Positions 1 through 50,639 of a stretch of DNA of 50,639 nt are shown here, one piece after another. The DNA lies in sequence record SRR20825006_718; one strand, written 5' to 3'. Every line of letters starts with the position of its first letter. The stretch's first letter is position 1. The notes below the pieces were generated by a model, which was not told where the DNA came from, did no database searches, and worked only from the letters and a program-made list of their open reading frames with translations. Made by a program: the position numbers and the translations under genes.

Positions 1-35
1 TCAACCCTCAACCCTCAACCCTCAACCCTTAACCC
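1..35. repeat. 7-bp tandem repeat (TCAACCC)x4 + TTAACCC, truncated by window start
   Basis: Read directly at 1-7, 8-14, 15-21, 22-28; degenerate unit at 29-35. Confidence 0.95.
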
Positions 36-28367: not shown

Positions 28368-30167
28368 ATGGACAATTTGAATTACGGAATTATAGGAAAT
28401 TGTAGGAGTGCCGCATTGATTTCCAAAGATGGTTCCATTGACTGGTGCTGTTTGCCACAATTTGACTCCACATCAATTTTTGCTAGACTATTGGATGAGC
28501 AAAAAGGGGGGAGTTTTGAAGTGCATCCAATTGGGGATTATAACATTGAACAGGAATATTATCGCAGTACTGCTATTCTGATTACGCGCTTTACAGAAGG
28601 GGAAAATGTTTTTGAACTTCACGACTTTATGCCCCGTCACCATAAAATGAACGGAAAATATAAGGCACAGCCGGAAATTATCAGGTATGTAAAATATGTC
28701 TCAGGGTCACCTAAATTTACAGTGAAGTATGACCCTAAATTGGAATATGGACTCGGCGAGACCACGCATTTTGTAAAAGAAGATTTTATAGCAAGTCTTA
28801 CCCATCAAGAGAAGTATGATACCTTGTTCCTCTATACTTCTTTTGACAAGGAGGGGGTTCTTAACGGTGATGAAATAACTCTTAAGGAAGATGGCTATTT
28901 CCTGATTCGTTATAACGAAAAAATATTAAAACCCACTACCGAAAAGATGGCCTTGGAACTGGAGCGGACCAAGGTGTACTGGTTGGATTGGTCTGCAAAG
29001 ACACCCGATTACCAAAAGTTCAAGGATGAAATAATCAGAAGTGCCATTACCTTGAAAATGCTTACCTATGATAAGACAGGGGCTGTTTTGGCAGCTGCCA
29101 CGACTTCGCTTCCGGAAACAATAGGTGAGGTGAGAAACTGGGATTATCGTTTCTGTTGGATTCGTGATGCATCCATGGTAATCAAGGTGGTTTCGGAGCT
29201 TGGTCATAAGAATTCTGCGAAGCGCTATCTGCAGTTTATCATTGATTTGATGCCGGACAAGGACGAGAAACTTCAGATTATGTACGGCATCAATAAGGAA
29301 AAGATGCTGACCGAAATTTCGTTGGACCATCTCGATGGTTACAAGGGTTCCAAGCCCGTTCGTGTTGGTAATGCAGCCTATATGCAAAAGCAGAACGACA
29401 TCTATGGAATTCTAATGGATGTTATCTACGAACAGTTGCGAAACTTCAGTAACGATATAGAGAACGTAGAGGAGCTATGGAGCATAACCAAAGGTATTGT
29501 TTGGATTGTGGGCAAACACTGGGAAGAACCAGATAAAGGAATTTGGGAATTCCGAGGGGACGATAGACATTTTACGTTCTCCAAAGTATTGTGCTGGGTG
29601 GCTTTGGACCGTGCCATTAAAGTGGCCAATATGTTTGGAAAGACACGAAAATTGGAACGCTGGACGGCTCTTGAGCAAAAAATCAAGGACGATATCCACG
29701 AAAATGCATGGAACAGCGATATCAATGCTTTTGTCCAGAGCTATGGTTCCCGTCATTTGGATGCATCCGTTTTATTGATGGAGCCTTACGGGTTTATCCA
29801 TCCGCGCGATCCAAAATATGTGAGCACTGTAAAGGCTATTGAGGAAGGCTTGAGCAATGATGGTCTTTTGTACCGTTATAAAAACGAGGACGACTTTGGA
29901 TTGCCTTCTTCCTCATTTACAATTTGTACGTTCTGGTTTATCAATGCACTTTTCAAAATAGGGGAGGAAGAAAAGGCTTTGGAGCAGTTCGAGCGTTTAT
30001 TGAGCTATAGCAACCATTTGGGATTGTTCAGCGAGGATATCGATTTTAAAACAAAACGTTTGTTGGGCAATTTCCCACAGGCCTATTCGCATTTGGCATT
30101 AATCGAGTGTGCCATTAATTTCTCCACCAAGCAAAAAGATGAGCGCATACTGGAGTCCATCAAATAA
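28368..30167 (+). CDS. Glycoside hydrolase family 15 (probable trehalase)
   Basis: TTSLPE..G..RNWDYRFCWIRD, GIWEFR, GLFSE, GNFPQAYSH. Confidence 0.93.
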   Translation: MDNLNYGIIGNCRSAALISKDGSIDWCCLPQFDSTSIFARLLDEQKGGSFEVHPIGDYNIEQEYYRSTAILITRFTEGENVFELHDFMPRHHKMNGKYKAQPEIIRYVKYVSGSPKFTVKYDPKLEYGLGETTHFVKEDFIASLTHQEKYDTLFLYTSFDKEGVLNGDEITLKEDGYFLIRYNEKILKPTTEKMALELERTKVYWLDWSAKTPDYQKFKDEIIRSAITLKMLTYDKTGAVLAAATTSLPETIGEVRNWDYRFCWIRDASMVIKVVSELGHKNSAKRYLQFIIDLMPDKDEKLQIMYGINKEKMLTEISLDHLDGYKGSKPVRVGNAAYMQKQNDIYGILMDVIYEQLRNFSNDIENVEELWSITKGIVWIVGKHWEEPDKGIWEFRGDDRHFTFSKVLCWVALDRAIKVANMFGKTRKLERWTALEQKIKDDIHENAWNSDINAFVQSYGSRHLDASVLLMEPYGFIHPRDPKYVSTVKAIEEGLSNDGLLYRYKNEDDFGLPSSSFTICTFWFINALFKIGEEEKALEQFERLLSYSNHLGLFSEDIDFKTKRLLGNFPQAYSHLALIECAINFSTKQKDERILESIK

Positions 30168-30169
30168 AT

Positions 30170-30197
30170 AAAAAAAACGCCCCGATCGGGGCGTTTT
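30170..30197. terminator. Bidirectional Rho-independent terminator
   Basis: Perfect palindrome AAAACGCCCCGATCGGGGCGTTTT (30174-30197) between convergent genes. Confidence 0.88.
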
Positions 30198-30235
30198 CAA
30201 ATCCAAGTGGGTTTTCATCCCAACAAATATTTGAA

Positions 30236-32041
30236 TTAGTCAAAGGTATACCCGTTATCTGCGGCAACTTTGTCGGCAATCTGCGTTCTAAGTTCCACAA
30301 CATTGGGTTGGTTTGTGTACTTGGTAAAGCGTTTGAGTCCCATCAACATCATACGTTGCTCATCACCTTCGGCAAAGGAAACTATGGCTTCTTTCCCCTT
30401 TTGCTGGATGATGTCAACCGCTCTGTACAAATACAATTTGGACATCGCTATTTGTGCTGCCTGGGCTTCTTCACCAAAGCGTTTTGCATTTTTCTCGGTT
30501 CTAAGAATGGCCGATTCTGCCATATAGATTTGAATCAAGATATCGGAAGCGGCCATCAATAGCATTTGATGTTCTTCCAAATCGGGACCAAATTTCTGAA
30601 CGGCGCTACCAGCGACCATCAAAAAGACTTTTTTCAGTCTTGTGAGCAAGTCTTTTTCTTCGGACAGCAATTCCGAATAGTCCGGTGTGTCAAAAGATGG
30701 AATGCCCATCAATTCCTCGCCCACTTTTGTGGCTGGCCCCAAAAGGTCCACATGCCCTTTCATAGCCTTTTTCACCAACATTCCAACGGAAAGCATACGG
30801 TTGATTTCGTTGGTGCCTTCGTAAATTCTGGAAATACGGGCATCTCGCCATGCAGATTCCATTGGGGTATCGGCACTAAAGCCCATTCCTCCGAATATTT
30901 GGATGCCTTCGTCCGTGGTATGTTGTACGTGCTCGGAAACGGCCACCTTCAAAATGGAACATTCAATGGCGTATTCCTCTACACCTTTGAGTTCTGCTTC
31001 TTGATGCGGATTGCCGCTAGATTCGCGAATGGCAATTCTGTCCTCGATATTCTTTGCGGCACGATAGCAGGCTGCTTCGTCCACATAGGCGTTGGTGGCC
31101 ATATCTGCAATTTTTGCTTTGATGGCACCAAAGTTGATGATCGGGGTTTTAAATTGAACGCGCTCGTTGGCGTATTTTGTGGCTTCGCTGATGACTCGGC
31201 GCTGTGCTTCCAAACAAGCAGCTGCCAATTTAATACGGCCGATGTTCAAAGCGTTCATTGCGATTTTAAAGCCATTTCCTTTTTCGGATAGCATGTTTTC
31301 AACGGGAACCTTGGTTTCGTTGAAGAATACTTGTCGGGTAGAGGAGGAGTGAATGCCCAATTTCTTTTCTTCATCACCCAAGCTGATTCCATTCTTTGGG
31401 TCGTTTTCCACGATAAACCCGGTGATGTTTTTGTCATCTTCAATTCGGGCAAAAACAATGAACAGGTTACAGAATCCAGCATTGGAAATCCACATTTTCT
31501 GTCCCGTGATGCTGTAGTATTTGCCGTCATCAGAAAGCACGGCCTTCGTTTTGCCCGAGTTCGCATCGGAACCTGCTCCTGGTTCGGTTAAACAATATGC
31601 ACCGAACCATTCGCCAGTAGCCAATTTAGGTACATATTTTTGTTTTTGTTCTTCGGTTCCGTACAGGGTAATGGGCATGGTTCCAATTCCGGTGTGGGCT
31701 CCAAAAGCGGTACTAAATGATCCCGTGGCGCCCGAAATGTAATCGCAGACCAGCATGGTAGAGACAAATCCCATTCCCATACCTCCGTAAGCTTCTGGAA
31801 CGGCTACACTTAGCAAGCCAAGTTCGCCGGCTTTTCTCATACATTCCTCGGTATAGGCGTAGTCTTTTTTCTCAAAACGCTCCCAGTGTGCCCAAAGTTC
31901 CCTGTCCACAAATTCTTTGGTGCTTTCGCGCATCATTTTTTGTTCCTCGTTAAGGTCCTCAAGGGTGAATACATCCTCACACTTGGTCTCCTTGACCAAG
32001 AATTGACCTCCTCTCAGTATGTCTTTTTCTGTTGTTTCCAT
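30236..32041 (-). CDS. Acyl-CoA dehydrogenase (long FadE-type)
   Basis: YCLTEPGAGSD, GQKMWISN, QIFGGMGF, RIYEGTNEI. Confidence 0.96.
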   Translation of the reverse strand: METTEKDILRGGQFLVKETKCEDVFTLEDLNEEQKMMRESTKEFVDRELWAHWERFEKKDYAYTEECMRKAGELGLLSVAVPEAYGGMGMGFVSTMLVCDYISGATGSFSTAFGAHTGIGTMPITLYGTEEQKQKYVPKLATGEWFGAYCLTEPGAGSDANSGKTKAVLSDDGKYYSITGQKMWISNAGFCNLFIVFARIEDDKNITGFIVENDPKNGISLGDEEKKLGIHSSSTRQVFFNETKVPVENMLSEKGNGFKIAMNALNIGRIKLAAACLEAQRRVISEATKYANERVQFKTPIINFGAIKAKIADMATNAYVDEAACYRAAKNIEDRIAIRESSGNPHQEAELKGVEEYAIECSILKVAVSEHVQHTTDEGIQIFGGMGFSADTPMESAWRDARISRIYEGTNEINRMLSVGMLVKKAMKGHVDLLGPATKVGEELMGIPSFDTPDYSELLSEEKDLLTRLKKVFLMVAGSAVQKFGPDLEEHQMLLMAASDILIQIYMAESAILRTEKNAKRFGEEAQAAQIAMSKLYLYRAVDIIQQKGKEAIVSFAEGDEQRMMLMGLKRFTKYTNQPNVVELRTQIADKVAADNGYTFD

Positions 32042-32058
32042 AGTTGCTTAGATTAATA

Positions 32059-32081
32059 GAGTCAAGAATCAAGAGCCAAGA
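32059..32081. repeat. 7-bp repeat array, left arm of the inverted repeat around the four-helix-bundle gene
   Basis: GAGTCAA GAATCAA GAGCCAA GA. Confidence 0.85.
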
Positions 32082-32082
32082 T

Positions 32083-32436
32083 TTACTTGCCTAAACTGGT
32101 TTGAAAACTTGAAATCATTTTTTGTAATTGTTTTATGCTTTGTTCTAGTTGCTCAAATATTTCCGAAGTGATATAATTCTCGTTATGTGCTATTATTAAT
32201 TGTGTTTCCCATTCAAAGGCTGACCCCAAGCTGGTTTCGAGGTAGTTTTTGAAATATTTATCAGAACTTTTACTGGAACCCTCTGCAATGTTCGATGGAA
32301 TCGAAACCGCACATCTATTCATTTGACCGACCAATCCATACTTTTCGAAATCGGGAAAGGTTCTGGTAATTTTGTATGATTCAGATACTAATTCCATGCT
32401 CTCTTTCCAAATCTTCAATTTTTTGAAATTATGCAT
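32083..32436 (-). CDS. Four helix bundle protein (23S rRNA-IVP / TIGR02436-like family)
   Basis: FKKLKIW, FPDFEKYGL..QM.R.AVSIPSNIAEG, GSAFE.ETQL; 117 aa. Confidence 0.93.
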   Translation of the reverse strand: MHNFKKLKIWKESMELVSESYKITRTFPDFEKYGLVGQMNRCAVSIPSNIAEGSSKSSDKYFKNYLETSLGSAFEWETQLIIAHNENYITSEIFEQLEQSIKQLQKMISSFQTSLGK

Positions 32437-32441
32437 TCCAG

Positions 32442-32474
32442 TCTTGATTCTTGAATCCTAACATCCTGTATCTT
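32442..32474. repeat. 7-bp repeat array, right arm of the inverted repeat around the four-helix-bundle gene
   Basis: TCTTGAT TCTTGAA TCCTAACA TCCTGTA TCTT; 32442-32457 matches the reverse complement of 32059-32074 at 15/16. Confidence 0.85.
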
Positions 32475-33663
32475 AAGAAAGGAACTCGAATATACCCGCG
32501 GCACCCTGACCTGTACCTACGCACATGGTGACCATCCCGTATTTACCTTTCATGTCCCGCTTTCTCATTTCATCAAAAAGCTGAACGGACAATTTGGCCC
32601 CGGTACATCCCAAGGGGTGGCCTAGTGCGATTGCGCCTCCATTTACGTTCACGATTTCTTGATTCAATCCAAGTTCTCGGATAACGGCCAACGATTGCGA
32701 TGCAAAGGCTTCGTTCAATTCAATAAGGTCTATTTGGTCCTGCTTCATTCCGGCTTGCTTTAGTGCTTTTGGGATGGCTTTTACAGGCCCTATTCCCATA
32801 ATTCTTGGTTCTACCCCTGCTGCAGCGTAGTTGACCAACCTTGCAATGGGTTCCAAATTGAGTTCTTTGACCATTTCTTCGCTCATCACCATGACAAAGG
32901 CCGCTCCATCGCTCATTTGTGATGAATTTCCTGCGGTTACGCTACCTCCTTCCGCAAAAACCGGTCTTAGTTTGTTCAATGTAGGGATATTGGTCCCTTT
33001 TCTTGGTCCTTCGTCTTTGTTTACGGTGTAGTTTTTGGTTTCTTTTTTGCCAGCTTCGTTCACAAACGTGTGTTCGACTTCAATGGGTACGATTTGATCT
33101 TGAAAACGACCTTCCTCTTGGGCTTTTAACGCTTTCATATGGGAATTGTAGGCAAAAACATCTTGATCCTCCCGGGAAACCTTGAATTGTTTGGCCACGG
33201 CTTCTGCGGTAAGCCCCATGCCCCAATAATAATCTTCATGGCCTTCTTTGGCCGTAGCGTAATCTGGGGTAGGTTTATACCCGCCCATGGGGATGTAGCT
33301 CATGCTTTCGGCACCGCCTGCGATGATGCAATCTGCCATTCCCGCCTGGATTTTGGCTGTGGCAATCCCTATCGTTTCCAACCCTGAGGCACAATAGCGG
33401 TTCACGGTCACCCCGGGTACATCGTCAATGTCCAGACCCATAAGAGAGATAAGTCTTCCCATGTTCAAACCTTGCTCGGCTTCGGGCATCGCATTTCCCA
33501 CGATAACGTCGTCAATACGTTTTTTGTCCAATTGAGGAAGCTCTTTCATGATGTGTTCTATGGTTTCGGCAGCCAGTTCATCTGGACGCTTAAACCTGAA
33601 CAGTCCTTTTGGAGCTTTGCCCACGGCTGTTCTATATCCTTTTACTATGTATGCTGTTTTCAT
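32473..33663 (-). CDS. Acetyl-CoA C-acyltransferase (3-ketoacyl-CoA thiolase)
   Basis: [32 protein letters not shown]. Confidence 0.96.
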
Positions 33664-33681
33664 TTTTTCTTTTGATTTTTG

Positions 33682-33740
33682 GATTCAAGGACCAAGAGTC
33701 AGGATTTTGGGTCTTGGCTCTTTTGTCTTGATTCTTGTGT
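33682..33740. repeat. Gene-less inverted array of the same 7-bp repeat family
   Basis: GATTCAA GGACCAA GAGTCAG GA / 7-nt spacer / TCTTGGC TCTTTTG TCTTGAT TCTTGTG. Confidence 0.8.
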
Positions 33741-36146
33741 CTAGTTCCTCAACGGTTTTCCTGTTTTCAACATATGCTGGATGCGTTCCAAAGTCTTTCT
33801 TTCGGTACAAAGGGATAGAAATGCTTCTCTTTCCAAATCCAAAAGATATTGTTCGGTTACCATTGTAGCTTCCGAAAGGTCGCCGCCGGCCATTACATAG
33901 GCCAGTTTGTCGGCAATCTTTTTGTCGTGTTCAGAAATGTAATGTCCAGCTTCCATAGAGTCTGTTCCTACCAAGAACATACCCAAAGCTTGTTTTCCAA
34001 GCACCTTAACGTCCTTGCGTTTGACGGGTTTGGTATAGCCTGCGTCTGCCATTAGTTTGGCATACGCTTTCGCTGTTGCGATTTGACGGTCTTTATTGAC
34101 CACAACAACATCTTTGCCTTTTTGTAAGATCCCCAAATCAAATGCTTCATAGGCCGATGTGGACACTTTGGCCATTCCGATGGTGAGGAAATACTCTTGA
34201 AGCACGTTGAGCTCCACATCGTTTTTCCTGAAAGTATCAGAAGCCCGAAGCGCCATTTCCTTGGAACCGCCTCCACCTGGAATTACACCTACGCCGAATT
34301 CAACCAAACCAATATAGGTTTCGGCCGCTGCCACCACCTTATCCGCATGTAGTGAAAGTTCGCAACCACCGCCCAAGCACATACCGTGCGGAGCAGAAAC
34401 TGTTGGGATGGAGGAATATCGCATACGCATCATGGTGTCTTGGAACATTTTGATGGCCATGTTCAGCTCATCATATTCTTGTTCCACGGCCATCATAAAA
34501 ATCATTCCGATGTTGGCTCCAACGGAAAAATTCGCAGCTTGGTTACCAACGACCAGTCCTGCAAAATCTTTTTCGGCAAGGTCCACGGCTTTGTTCAAAC
34601 CGGCCAGTACATCCCCGCCAATGGTGTTCATTTTGGATTGGAATTCACAGTTCAGGATTCCATCGCCCAAATCTTCAATCACAACACCACTGTTTTTGAA
34701 GACTTCTTTTGTTTTTCTGATGTTGTCCAAAATGATGAAGGCATCCTGACCTGGAACTTTTTCCATGGCCTTTTTTGGAATGTCGTAGAAGTAGGTGTTG
34801 CCCTCCTTCACGGTGTAGAAGGAATTAATACCTGCTCCTTTCATTTCGGATACCCATGGAGCGGCTTCCAAACCTTCGGCCTTAATGAATTCAAGACCTT
34901 TTTCGAGCCCTACGGCATCCCAAATTTGGAAAGGTCCGTGCTCCCAGCCGAAACCAGCCTTCATGGCATCATCTATCTTGTATAACTCATCCGTGATTTC
35001 TGGAATACGATGGGTAACATAGGCAAAAAGTGCTCCGAAGCTCTTTCGGTAGAACTCTCCGGCTTTATCTTTTCCATCTACCAAAACCGGAAAACGGTCA
35101 ATTACCTTGTCTATGGTTTTGGTAAGCTCTAGAGTGGCGAATTTTGCACTCTTTTTGGAACGGTATTCCATGGTGTCCAAATCCAATGTTAGGATTTCGC
35201 TCTTACCATCGTCTCCCTTGACTTTTTTGTAGAACCCTTGTCCAGTTTTACTTCCCAACCATTTGTTGTCCATCATGGTTTGTATGAAATCGGGCAATTG
35301 GAACAGTTCGTGACGTTCATCGTCCTTGCAGTTTTCACTGATTCCATTGGCCACGTGCACAAGGGTATCCAATCCAACCACATCCACGGTTCGGAAGGTA
35401 GCGGATTTGGGTCTGCCTATTACAGGGCCGGTCAATTTGTCGACTTCCTCCACCGTCATCTCCATTTCTTTTACGGCGTGGAAAAGACTTTGAATACTGA
35501 AGATTCCGATCCTGTTTCCAATAAAGGCAGGTGTATCCTTGGCCACCACAGATGTTTTGCCCAAGTATTGTTCACCATATCCATTCAAAAAGTCCAGAAC
35601 CTCTTGGGAAGTTTTCGGACCAGGAATAATTTCGAATAGCTTCAAATACCGGGCTGGATTAAAAAAGTGTGTTCCACAGAAATGTTTCTGGAAATCATCA
35701 CTTCTTCCTTCGCTCATAAAGCGGATGGGAATACCTGATGTGTTCGAAGTGATCAAAGTTCCAGGGGAACGGTGTTTGTCTAAATTCTCAAACACTTGTT
35801 TTTTGATGTCCAACCGTTCCACGACCACTTCAATGATCCAATCCACATCGGCCACTTTGGAAATATCATCTTCCATATTTCCGGTGGTGATGCGATCGGC
35901 AAAGCTTTTGTGATAAATAGGGGAGGGTTTGGATTTTAGGGCGGAAGCCAGAGATTCGTTAACCAAGCGGTTACGTACCGCTTTATCTTCCAAAGTAAGC
36001 CCTTGGGCTTTTTCTTTCTCCGTGAGTTCACGCGGAACAATGTCCAATAAAAGGACTTCGACCCCAATATTCGCAAAATGACATGCAATGCCACTTCCCA
36101 TTATTCCGGAACCGATTACGGCAACTTTGTTTATATGCCTTTTCAT
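33741..36146 (-). CDS. 3-hydroxyacyl-CoA dehydrogenase/enoyl-CoA hydratase (FadN-type)
   Basis: GSGIMGSG Rossmann motif, SNTSG, HFFNP, crotonase GGGCE, C-terminal GKPLRN. Confidence 0.95.
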   Translation of the reverse strand: MKRHINKVAVIGSGIMGSGIACHFANIGVEVLLLDIVPRELTEKEKAQGLTLEDKAVRNRLVNESLASALKSKPSPIYHKSFADRITTGNMEDDISKVADVDWIIEVVVERLDIKKQVFENLDKHRSPGTLITSNTSGIPIRFMSEGRSDDFQKHFCGTHFFNPARYLKLFEIIPGPKTSQEVLDFLNGYGEQYLGKTSVVAKDTPAFIGNRIGIFSIQSLFHAVKEMEMTVEEVDKLTGPVIGRPKSATFRTVDVVGLDTLVHVANGISENCKDDERHELFQLPDFIQTMMDNKWLGSKTGQGFYKKVKGDDGKSEILTLDLDTMEYRSKKSAKFATLELTKTIDKVIDRFPVLVDGKDKAGEFYRKSFGALFAYVTHRIPEITDELYKIDDAMKAGFGWEHGPFQIWDAVGLEKGLEFIKAEGLEAAPWVSEMKGAGINSFYTVKEGNTYFYDIPKKAMEKVPGQDAFIILDNIRKTKEVFKNSGVVIEDLGDGILNCEFQSKMNTIGGDVLAGLNKAVDLAEKDFAGLVVGNQAANFSVGANIGMIFMMAVEQEYDELNMAIKMFQDTMMRMRYSSIPTVSAPHGMCLGGGCELSLHADKVVAAAETYIGLVEFGVGVIPGGGGSKEMALRASDTFRKNDVELNVLQEYFLTIGMAKVSTSAYEAFDLGILQKGKDVVVVNKDRQIATAKAYAKLMADAGYTKPVKRKDVKVLGKQALGMFLVGTDSMEAGHYISEHDKKIADKLAYVMAGGDLSEATMVTEQYLLDLEREAFLSLCTERKTLERIQHMLKTGKPLRN

Positions 36147-36161
36147 GTGCGAGTTTGTGAT

Positions 36162-36611
36162 TTAATTATTAGTTGTTTTTGTATAGATTTTTTTATCTGT
36201 AATCAGTTTGTTAATCGTGTCAATGACGCTGAAAAAACCGGTTAAATCCTCTTGGGAAACGTGCTCTTCGACCACTTCATTGAAACGCAATACCACTTCT
36301 TTGGATTCCTCCCTTTTTTCGAGCCCCAGCGGTGTCAAAAAAATAAGGACGCCACGTCCGTCTTTGGGATTGCGCTTTCGCTCAATGTAGCCTCTTTGCT
36401 CAATATTTTTTAAGATCCGGGACAAACTAGTTGATTCCATTCCCATTTTGGGGCCCAGGGTGGTACTTGGTGTACCTCCTTTTGGGGCGATGCTCAGTAA
36501 GGTAAATCCAATGGCCATTGTAAGCCCGTAGTTTTTCGCTTCCTCATTGTACATTTTGCTAACCGCCTGCCAGGTTGCCCTCAGGGCGTGATCAATGGTC
36601 AAATCTTTCAT
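36162..36611 (-). CDS. MarR-family transcriptional regulator
   Basis: SLSRILKNIE.RGYIER...DGRGV...LTPLG. Confidence 0.92.
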   Translation of the reverse strand: MKDLTIDHALRATWQAVSKMYNEEAKNYGLTMAIGFTLLSIAPKGGTPSTTLGPKMGMESTSLSRILKNIEQRGYIERKRNPKDGRGVLIFLTPLGLEKREESKEVVLRFNEVVEEHVSQEDLTGFFSVIDTINKLITDKKIYTKTTNN

Positions 36612-36630
36612 AGAACTCGTTTGGTATTCT

Positions 36631-36667
36631 CAAATATATAAAAATTTATTATGCATGCATAATAAAT
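36631..36667 (-). promoter_or_regulatory. marR-fad operon promoter (-7 TATATTTG) with a 24-bp palindromic operator
   Basis: CAAATATA at 36631-36638; ATTTATTATGCATGCATAATAAAT at 36644-36667 is a perfect palindrome. Confidence 0.72.
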
Positions 36668-36683
36668 CAGATTAAATAATGGC

Positions 36684-36708
36684 AAAAAAAAGCCTGCAAA
36701 TCGCAGGC
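36684..36708 (-). terminator. Rho-independent terminator of the acyl-CoA ligase gene
   Basis: GCCTGC-aaatc-GCAGGC preceded by A8. Confidence 0.75.
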
Positions 36709-36732
36709 CATTCATTTTATAAAATGTTGTGG

Positions 36733-38502
36733 TTAATATCCATAGATATCATTGTACAAATCAATGTACATTTCCTTAACGGGCTTTCGTTTTAACTTCA
36801 TGGTAGGGGTAAGGTGGCCAGCTTCTACGCTCCAAACATCCGGAGTGAGCCTGAACTGTTTTACTTTTTCCCACTTGGCGAATTCTTGGTTGGCCCAATC
36901 CACTTCTTCCTGCATGCGGGCGATTACTTTTTCGTTTTTCACCAGTTCAGCGTTCGAGCCAACATCAATATTGTGTCGTTTTGCCCATTCCTTAACGAAT
37001 TCAAAGTTGGGTTGAATTAGTGCAGCGGGCATTTTCTCGCCTTCACCAATAACCATAATCTGTTCAATGAACCTTGATTGCTTAAACCGGTTCTCCAATA
37101 ATTGCGGGGCCACATATTTTCCACCAGAGGTCTTGAACATTTCCTTTTTACGGTCGGTTATGCGCAGAAAGCCCTCCGCATCGATTTCCCCGATGTCTCC
37201 TGTATGGAAATAGGCACCCGTCATCACTTCGGCGGTCTTTTCCTGATTTTTATAGTAGCCCATCATCACGTTTGGACCTTTGCAAAGAATTTCCCCGTCT
37301 TCCGCGATTTTTACTTCCACGTCGTCTATCATTTTACCCACTGTACCGATTTTCCAGCCTTTATTGCGTTGGTCGTTCACTGCAATCACTGGAGAGGTCT
37401 CGGTAAGTCCGTACCCTTCCATCACAGGCATTTCGGCAGCGGCAAAAACTCGGGCAAGTCTGGGTTGCAAGGCTGCACTACCGGAAACCATTACGGATAA
37501 ATTTCCGCCCAATCCTTCTTTCCATTTACTAAAGATGAGTTTTCTGGCAATGCCGAGTTTGGTCTCGTACCACCAACCGTTGGCTCCGTAGGGTTCAAAT
37601 TTGAGTCCTACTTCCACGGCCCAGAAGAACAATTTCTTCTTAATGCCGGTCAGCAACGCTCCTTTGGCAATAATGGCATCGTATACTTTTTCCAACAACC
37701 TAGGAACCACGGTCATTACATTGGGCTTCACCTCTTTTACATTTTCACTGATTTTATCCAGCCCTTCCGCAAAATAGACTTCTACGCCACAATATTGGTA
37801 GAGATAAAGGATCATGCGCTCAAAAATGTGGCAAATGGGCAAAAAACTCAACGCTGTGCCCCCAGTTTCGAAAGGAACTCTTTTTTGGCTGTCCACCACA
37901 TTGGATACAATGTTGTTATGGGAGAGCATAACCCCTTTGGGACGCCCAGTAGTGCCCGAGGTATAAATCAAGGTGGCCAGATCATCTGGTTTTACACTCT
38001 TTTTAATTTCTTCGACTTGGTCTTGGTTGGAGGCATCTGAGCCCAACTCCAATAGTTCCGACCAATTTTTACAGTTGTTGAGCTGTTCAAAAGAGTATAC
38101 ATCTTTCAGGTTTTCTACTTTTGATTGAATCGCCTGCACTTTCTCCAGAACTTCATCGCAGGAAACAAAACAAAGTTTTGCCTCGGAGTGGTTCAGAATG
38201 TATTCGTAATCCTCCTCGGAAATGGTGGGATAGATAGGTACATTTTGTGCGCCAATTTGAAGAACTCCAATATCAACAATATTCCACTCCGTACGGTTGG
38301 TCATGGAGATTACCGCAATCTTATCGTTGGGCTTAACGCCCATTTTTAGTAAAGCCCTGCTCACGGCATTGGCCTTGTCAATATACTCTTGGGTAGATGT
38401 TGCTATCCAAGTACCGTCACTTTTGGTGACCAATGATTTTTCTAAGGGGTATTTTTCAAGTTGATAGTATGGGAAATCAAATAATCGGGTAACAGTTTGC
38501 AT
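36733..38502 (-). CDS. Long-chain-fatty-acid--CoA ligase
   Basis: YTSGTTGRPKG, EGYGLTET, FHTGDIG, LTPTMKLKR. Confidence 0.95.
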   Translation of the reverse strand: MQTVTRLFDFPYYQLEKYPLEKSLVTKSDGTWIATSTQEYIDKANAVSRALLKMGVKPNDKIAVISMTNRTEWNIVDIGVLQIGAQNVPIYPTISEEDYEYILNHSEAKLCFVSCDEVLEKVQAIQSKVENLKDVYSFEQLNNCKNWSELLELGSDASNQDQVEEIKKSVKPDDLATLIYTSGTTGRPKGVMLSHNNIVSNVVDSQKRVPFETGGTALSFLPICHIFERMILYLYQYCGVEVYFAEGLDKISENVKEVKPNVMTVVPRLLEKVYDAIIAKGALLTGIKKKLFFWAVEVGLKFEPYGANGWWYETKLGIARKLIFSKWKEGLGGNLSVMVSGSAALQPRLARVFAAAEMPVMEGYGLTETSPVIAVNDQRNKGWKIGTVGKMIDDVEVKIAEDGEILCKGPNVMMGYYKNQEKTAEVMTGAYFHTGDIGEIDAEGFLRITDRKKEMFKTSGGKYVAPQLLENRFKQSRFIEQIMVIGEGEKMPAALIQPNFEFVKEWAKRHNIDVGSNAELVKNEKVIARMQEEVDWANQEFAKWEKVKQFRLTPDVWSVEAGHLTPTMKLKRKPVKEMYIDLYNDIYGY

Positions 38503-50609: not shown

Positions 50610-50639
50610 AGTAAGCAGTAAGCAGTAAGCAGTAAGCAG
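50610..50639. repeat. 7-bp tandem repeat (AGTAAGC)x4+, truncated by window end
   Basis: Units at 50610, 50617, 50624, 50631 plus a partial AG. Confidence 0.95.

Follow-up and report, generated by a model that had tools for sequence, protein, structure and literature searches.

A four-helix-bundle gene between inverted heptamer arrays is exchanged as a cassette at fixed operon junctions in a genus of marine bacteria

A small gene of the PF05635/TIGR02436 family, enclosed by inverted arrays of 7-bp units, behaves as one unit that fixed operon junctions acquire, exchange and lose. The cassette was recognized in a stretch of 50,639 nucleotides (record SRR20825006_718; hereafter the window), and what is new is that one junction, compared in 95 congeners (related marine bacteria), alternates between several clades of the protein, gene-less hairpins, remnants and a spacer of about 22 nt. 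The literature covered, mainly the main texts of open papers, gave no account of cassettes being swapped at operon junctions; the cassette is real and mobile, and it is apparently undescribed in print.

The locus and the encoded protein

The operon has the order marR-hcd-thl-acd, and the cassette lies between the thiolase and the FadE-type acyl-CoA dehydrogenase genes. A preliminary description made from the sequence had placed a 117-aa gene here, and its coordinates hold, with the gene on the same (minus) strand as both neighbours. The features are listed below in window coordinates.

32083..32436, minus strand: four-helix-bundle gene (PF05635 / TIGR02436), 117 aa, clade 'A1' of our tree
32442..32473, minus strand: 5' heptamer array, unit ANNCAAG, five anchors spaced 7-8-7-7, starting at the thiolase stop codon and ending 5 nt short of the cassette gene's start
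32050..32081, plus strand: 3' heptamer array, inverted, five anchors spaced 8-7-7-7, beginning directly past the stop codon, with a possible sixth anchor at 32042
32473..33663, minus strand: thiolase, host gene, upstream neighbour
30236..32041, minus strand: acyl-CoA dehydrogenase FadE, host gene, downstream neighbour
32473..32499, minus strand: last ~27 nt of the thiolase, the sole upstream host DNA that tracks the allele across congeners
32027..32041, minus strand: first five codons of the acyl-CoA dehydrogenase, an N-terminal variant that tracks the allele
33664..33740, minus strand: hairpin without a gene, built of the same type of heptamer, at the junction of the hydroxyacyl-CoA dehydrogenase and thiolase genes

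The arms at 32059-32074 and 32442-32457 are 16 nt long, lie 367 nt apart and are the top-scoring inverted pair of 31800-32800. Their reported pairing was reproduced in full: 15/16 positions (94%) are complementary with a 13-nt perfect core, 8 nt from the stop codon (32083) and 5 nt from the start codon (32436) of the minus-strand ORF. That core occurs four times on both strands of the 4.4-Mb genome, and two of the four are the cassette arms. The hand count of about 35% GC over 32101-32400 was likewise accurate (34.7%; cassette ORF 33.9%) and lies below both flanking genes (acyl-CoA dehydrogenase 46.1%, thiolase 47.4%; whole genome 41.7%). The spacers do consist of opposed 7-bp units, but the arrays are longer than had been described and nearly fill both spacers, the anchor AG(A/T)/GGA occurring five times in the 5' array (32442-32473) and five to six times in the 3' array (32050 or 32042 to 32081). 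The gene-less hairpin at 33664-33740 had been missed; it carries a heptamer of the cassette type at a junction where relatives hold full cassettes of other clades. The arm stem is predicted to form (12/16 pairs at a probability of 0.88-0.96 in a 720-nt operon context; duplex energy -24.9 kcal/mol) and the whole 461-nt region folds no better than shuffles (z -0.88). An Rfam scan gave nothing close to threshold, there were no rRNA matches in 30000-37000, a promoter/terminator scan gave nothing above shuffles and nothing within the cassette on the sense strand, and PADLOC returned 0 families at E 0.1 for the cassette.

The encoded protein matches the full profile of PF05635 (E 1.2e-37, 128.8 bits against a cut-off of 33.8) and TIGR02436 (E 1.1e-34, 118.9 bits against 24). 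Its predicted model (pLDDT 96.7) has four helices and matches Xcc0516 (2gsc; TM 0.94, rmsd 1.3), BT_0352 and Avd (4dwl; TM 0.81), which bears out the assignment to the intervening-sequence protein family with an Avd-like fold. Two sequence-level relatives are present in the PDB, with five chains each. The protein is under purifying selection, dN/dS being 0.05-0.17 across clades and 0.17 in clade A1, and is weakly basic (net +1.5 to +2.9). Pfam gives PF05635 alone, with no nuclease or transposase domain, and there is no nuclease among the significant fold matches. No reverse transcriptase is encoded in the operon; the corresponding profile, PF00078, was not found in this genome and was found in 34 of 101 congeners. 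An RNase III gene is present in the genome. Of 41 genomes drawn from the whole phylum, 34 have TIGR02436 genes, with up to 13 copies in one genome.

We note separately a near-perfect 26-nt palindrome at window 36641-36668, which lies just 5' of the marR-family gene and past the end of an acyl-CoA ligase gene. It is 100% conserved in four congeners, three of which have about 1.6-1.8 kb of extra DNA directly adjoining it, and has a second genomic copy at G000:C19:44422. It is likely to be the operator of the operon's MarR regulator.

Alternative alleles at two junctions

Alleles were compared in 95 of 98 genus genomes that gave a match, clade names being those of our own tree. At thl|acd the junction held a short spacer in 35 genomes, a clade B gene in 22, A2 in 16, a gene-less mid-length spacer in eight, A1 in five (including this genome), F in five, an unplaced gene in two and remnants in two. 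The alignment recommended in the preliminary description thus does separate filled from empty alleles: the gene is present in 50/95 congeners, in at least five clades, and absent from 45/95. The hcd|thl junction held mid-length spacers in 46, clade E in 22, short spacers in 11, D in six, G in four and other inserts in three, and was not available in three. Across the family (89 of 142 genomes with a thiolase match, mostly the best-scoring), the gene was present at hcd|thl in 24/89 and at thl|acd in 22/88, and a profile detected three further copies, all divergent.

The three closest genomes, at 93-95% distal nucleotide identity, have three different thl|acd alleles, and of the nearest two, one has a clade B gene that is 47% identical and uses a different unit, the other a 22-nt spacer. 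Placed on a tree of 86 host genomes, the alleles required 37 changes compared with 45.7 for shuffled labels (minimum 40), so some clustering of alleles persists. Approximately unbiased (AU) tests on 32 genomes, hand-picked to include discordant pairs, rejected monophyly of the carriers for A1 (p 7e-43) and B (p 1e-50). Vertical inheritance at thl|acd is rejected by the allele table, the changes on the host tree and the AU tests. Random transposition is also rejected for this clade: the 106 closest matches to the cassette, this copy included, comprise 76 at thl|acd, 28 at hcd|thl and two that end at contig ends, so that 106/106 are at the two thiolase-side junctions. The idea of a discrete mobile cassette without a transposase is supported, in the form of a site-faithful element that does not disperse. 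No target-site duplication was apparent by eye at the junctions compared. In one RNA run, a loose end at 32473 runs on into a clade-B-like arm.

Decay runs via internal deletion of the gene to remnants and gene-less hairpins. A decayed copy in L287 is 93% identical to the 3' 100 nt of the cassette while its thiolase is 83% identical, and L054 has kept both arms enclosing just the 3' end of the gene; together these indicate transfer between species and decay by internal deletion. Several short alleles look, by eye, like the 3' portion of gene-less hairpins of type E, and an 'empty' junction may therefore represent the last step of decay. The same counts bear on the alternative that the gene belongs to a host-beneficial diversifying module, such as an RNA-binding translation regulator or an anti-phage factor, whose polymorphism at fixed junctions is maintained by balancing selection. 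The low dN/dS would fit such a role, as would the persistence of several deep clades at one site family-wide, the presence of family members inside cas loci (PMC3936711) and the proposal that heptamer runs upstream of start codons are regulator sites (PMC4679880). However, 45 of the 95 congeners do without the gene at thl|acd, many copies are broken by stops, one congener has a single family copy genome-wide, no PADLOC match was obtained and the host genes are unrelated housekeeping genes, and we regard a beneficial module as improbable.

Other sequences occupy the same slots. Unrelated genes of 540-600 nt are present in L295, L307, L310 and L221 (hcd|thl) and in L064 (thl|acd), and two further hairpin types recur at these junctions, one a GC-rich palindromic repeat whose core is GTCGAG, the other a hairpin with CCCC...GGGG arms. 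These two types are found in L023, L202 and L210 (thl|acd) and in L052, L199, L214, L223, L229 and L230 (hcd|thl or thl|acd). Repeats of the GTCGAG-core and CCCC...GGGG types flank other small genes in Bacteroidota. The two junctions may be shared landing sites.

The host DNA that moves with an allele is short. Background-corrected excess identity between genomes sharing an allele was restricted to the last 30 nt of the thiolase (z 13 by label permutation; 0/22 other windows; 3/89 genomes with rare states set aside), with the signal located at -27..-18 and -9..0. The last thiolase codon was Asn in 34/34 short alleles and Ser in 19/21 clade B alleles, and the acyl-CoA dehydrogenase had the short N-terminal form in 18/21 B and the long form in 15/15 A2. 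In 31 close pairs with different alleles, identity was 0.776 in the last 30 nt of the thiolase and 0.916 at -130..-30, whereas 23 close pairs with the same allele gave 0.913 in both; these pairs share genomes and are not independent. At hcd|thl, after exclusion of 7 pairs of intermediate kind and of 8 genomes whose flanks were short, identity in the last 30 nt was 0.828 in 18 different-allele pairs against 0.969 in 15 same-allele pairs, with a smaller dip at -130..-30 (0.896 against 0.938; distal 0.900 against 0.923). No long co-conversion tracts were seen in 100-nt or 30-nt windows. Exchange thus ends no more than about 10-30 nt away from the cassette, although many rounds of ordinary long-tract recombination can also leave short linked flanks.

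Heptamer arms, protein clades and a proposed mechanism

Each protein clade has its own heptamer at whichever junction it occupies, and arms and protein travel together. The units are ANNCAAG in clade A, AAAATAG/AAAAGAG in B, ANNCTAG in D and TATTGAG/ATTTTAG in E. In L036 the protein at hcd|thl is of A type and the one at thl|acd of E type, each with its own unit, and L035 and L038 have the reverse arrangement.

The layout of gene and inverted heptamers is family-wide. Inspection by eye showed all 8 paralogs in this genome to have inverted flanks that are periodic, with a unit particular to each and, in one case, a period of 8. In 207 intact cassettes, a set weighted heavily to this operon, lag-7 autocorrelation was 0.48 and 0.51 compared with 0.31-0.32 in shuffles, and a stem score of at least 9 was reached by 178/206 compared with 18% of shuffles. 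Because of that weighting the test was repeated on 80 cassettes at other sites, sampled from family to phylum: the lag-7 values were 0.42 and 0.46, while lags 5, 6 and 9 gave 0.27-0.30, the stem score was passed by 59/80 against 18.5% with mismatched partners, and both neighbours were on the same strand in 67/80. Gene-less periodic hairpins are not abundant in this genome, since they were detected in 10/1024 spacers compared with 2 in shuffles, about half being convincing by eye.

A number of related arrays were noted. A period-8 arm variant flanks the paralog at G000:C60:263691-264005, and gene-less period-8 hairpins occur at hcd|thl in the congeners L044, L045, L059, L282-L285 and L328. A gene-less heptamer hairpin at G000:C60:160868-160977 lies between convergent genes, the usual setting being co-directional. 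Pure intergenic heptamer expansions are present at both edges of the window, one with more than 60 copies of a unit (window 1-35 and upstream, G000:C60:31400 or earlier to 31876) and the other with about 15 copies of another (window 50610-50639 and beyond); a comparable 13-copy run forms the 3' arm of the paralog C22:15131, and the expansions at the edges are possibly expanded arms of decayed cassettes.

Pairing between arms is strongest within a clade (-21.4 kcal/mol for 5' A1 with 3' A1 compared with -8.3 for 5' A1 with 3' E). In A1, A2, B and D, however, cognate arms pair no better than arms taken from a fellow clade member, clade E alone having a weak cognate advantage (p 0.003). Of the family-wide period-7, inverted and covarying arms anticipated in the preliminary description, the periodic inversion is therefore borne out and the covariation, in four of five clades, is not. 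Nor are G.U pairs enriched over A.C on the mRNA strand (109 compared with 173; other sites 55 compared with 45), a test open to bias from G avoidance near start codons and from shared ancestry. RNA-library contigs from four runs of two studies bridge both arms and contain no joint that skips the gene, which counts weakly, as the contigs are possibly of DNA and reveal neither transcript ends nor transcript level; one unrelated 2.3-kb joint with a 26-nt side is treated as belonging to another organism. These results argue against RNA pairing as the selected feature and against the weight that the preliminary description put on an RNA stem, and the pairing and G.U data fit a conserved motif read in both orientations.

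An mRNA-level intervening sequence, the main idea of the preliminary description, is one alternative. Under this explanation the RNA stem is cut by RNase III or loops the gene out, leaving the insert harmless, and the element is spread by ordinary homologous recombination, the short linked flanks being what remains after many rounds. The predicted stem, the RNase III gene, the co-directional neighbours in 67 of the 80 other-site cassettes and the Coxiella 23S element, which has heptamers before its ORF and is cleaved by RNase III within a 28-bp stem (PMC4990558), are all in keeping with it. Set against it are the pairing, G.U and contig results above, and it leaves the purifying selection on the protein, the period of 7 and the clade-specific units unexplained. 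We consider it unlikely, while giving it real weight.

The commonest number of anchors per arm in this operon is five, which matches the subunit number of the solved relatives. Counts of exactly five, for 5' and 3' arms respectively, were 35/62 and 35/62 in A1, 14/18 and 11/18 in A2, 27/44 and 20/44 in E, 12/30 and 10/30 in B (where the 3' mode is 4) and 12/29 and 14/29 in D, and the mode stayed at five after thinning to 60 (27/60 and 24/60). At other sites, where a cruder generic anchor was counted, the mode was 4 (25/73 and 19/73), most arms having 3-6 and shuffles 2-3. As the anchor pattern was picked after clade A had been viewed, we treat the five-anchor count as a lead.

We propose that the cassette is a site-faithful and largely selfish element whose protein binds its own arms and which spreads by replacing alleles through short flanks, an account to which we give about an even chance. 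The heptamer array, four-helix-bundle gene and inverted heptamer array together take up the interval between the stop codon of one host gene and the start codon of the next. The protein would be a pentamer like its solved relatives and would bind its own arms at about one unit per subunit, the arms being kept by sequence recognition and not by pairing. A five-unit ligand is plausible because Avd binds an RNA stem as a pentamer, with all five protomers in contact and bases flipped between protomers (10.1101/2023.10.23.563531). The protein-arm complex may fold nucleic acid that is incoming or single-stranded in such a way as to bring the two short host flanks next to each other, and host recombination or repair could then use 20-40 nt of flanking homology to exchange the resident allele for the cassette. 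From its place over the translation start, the 5' array might allow the protein to damp its own synthesis, and the arm stem might keep the insertion cheap for the operon.

In favour of allele replacement by an arm-binding protein we count the allele table, the three nearest alleles, the AU tests, the L287 copy and the short flanks, together with the link between clade and unit, the five anchors, the five-chain relatives and the dN/dS values. Against it, co-inheritance by itself suffices to make unit and protein vary together, the net charge of the protein is only mildly positive, clade E has its cognate advantage, and the anchor mode is 4 at other sites and in the clade B 3' arms; the post hoc anchor pattern, the non-independent pairs and the long-tract recombination alternative also count against it. 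A stronger claim would be that this is a class of element without transposase, nuclease or reverse transcriptase in which a homopentamer reads five units at each end of its own gene, brings two host flanks of 20-40 nt together and drives replacement of any occupant of an operon junction; we advance it tentatively and think it, on balance, doubtful.

Another possibility is retrohoming, in which an Avd-like pentamer presents the stem-closed operon RNA to a reverse transcriptase acting in trans and the cDNA replaces the resident allele. The shared Avd fold (TM 0.81), a diversity-generating retroelement (DGR) structure in which the template forms a loop closed by an RNA duplex and Avd sits on a stem (10.1101/2023.10.23.563531), and the sharp co-conversion boundaries of DGRs (PMC3240598) would be compatible with this. 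The reverse transcriptase route is disfavoured because PF00078 was not found in this genome and was found in just 34 of 101 congeners; moreover, none lies beside the cassette, transfer between species would still need DNA uptake, and the arms have no RNA-strand signal. We therefore think retrohoming very improbable.

TIGR02436 proteins gain a candidate ligand, their own arms, with cognate and non-cognate sets available from several clades at one site, and the match of five units with five subunits is a stoichiometric prediction by which the role of the family becomes directly testable. Should the protein drive short-flank replacement, the cassette would be a minimal gene-replacement system and would bear on how Avd, rRNA intervening sequences and intergenic heptamer repeats arose. 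If the five-unit reading is true, the clade-specific heptamers would constitute a natural code by which protein recognizes repeat, Avd would derive from such an element by domestication, and many intergenic heptamer repeats of bacteria would be footprints of such elements.

Comparison with known systems

The PF05635 family has been noted, besides cas loci, in rRNA inserts of CPR bacteria (PMC11270868) and as an Avd look-alike (PMC10053308). With DGRs the cassette shares the four-helix-bundle fold of Avd (identity 11%). Unlike a DGR, it has no adjacent or genomic reverse transcriptase that we could find, no template/variable repeat pair was seen in the repeat search of 31800-32800, and it is flanked by its own heptamer arrays. 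IS elements and MITEs resemble it in having one gene within inverted ends of repeated motifs and in their gene-less derivatives, but the cassette has no transposase domain, does not disperse (106/106 at two junctions) and moves together with the termini of host genes. Intergenic heptamer repeats (TAACTGA; Beggiatoaceae, cyanobacteria and Bacteroidetes) also form period-7 runs upstream of starts or after stops (PMC4679880), and a term search of the text available for that paper gave no mention of a helix bundle, S23 or intervening sequences.

Free-standing homing endonuclease genes have in common with the cassette a site-faithful, patchy spread and ORF-less leftovers. Homing genes pass through a cycle of invasion, decay and reinvasion, and their co-conversion tracts are usually longer than about 10-30 nt. 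The cassette differs from them in that a nuclease domain is absent, occupied alleles are replaced and the linked flank is about 10-30 nt.

The ORF-bearing 23S rRNA intervening sequences (S23p; Coxiella, Leptospira) share the protein family with the cassette. Like it, they have terminal inverted repeats round the gene and tandem heptamers before the start codon, and ORF-deleted copies exist (PMC4990558); in rRNA inserts, ORF-less and ORF-bearing forms are scattered at the same sites (PMC11270868). The cassette differs in lying between protein-coding genes, with several clades swapping at one junction, and whereas the Coxiella ORF has been called expendable (PMC4990558), the cassette protein is under purifying selection. 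The cassette thus falls outside the defined classes of rRNA intervening sequence, DGR, homing endonuclease and IS element, and in its workings it resembles in part an ORF-bearing intervening sequence, in part a homing gene.
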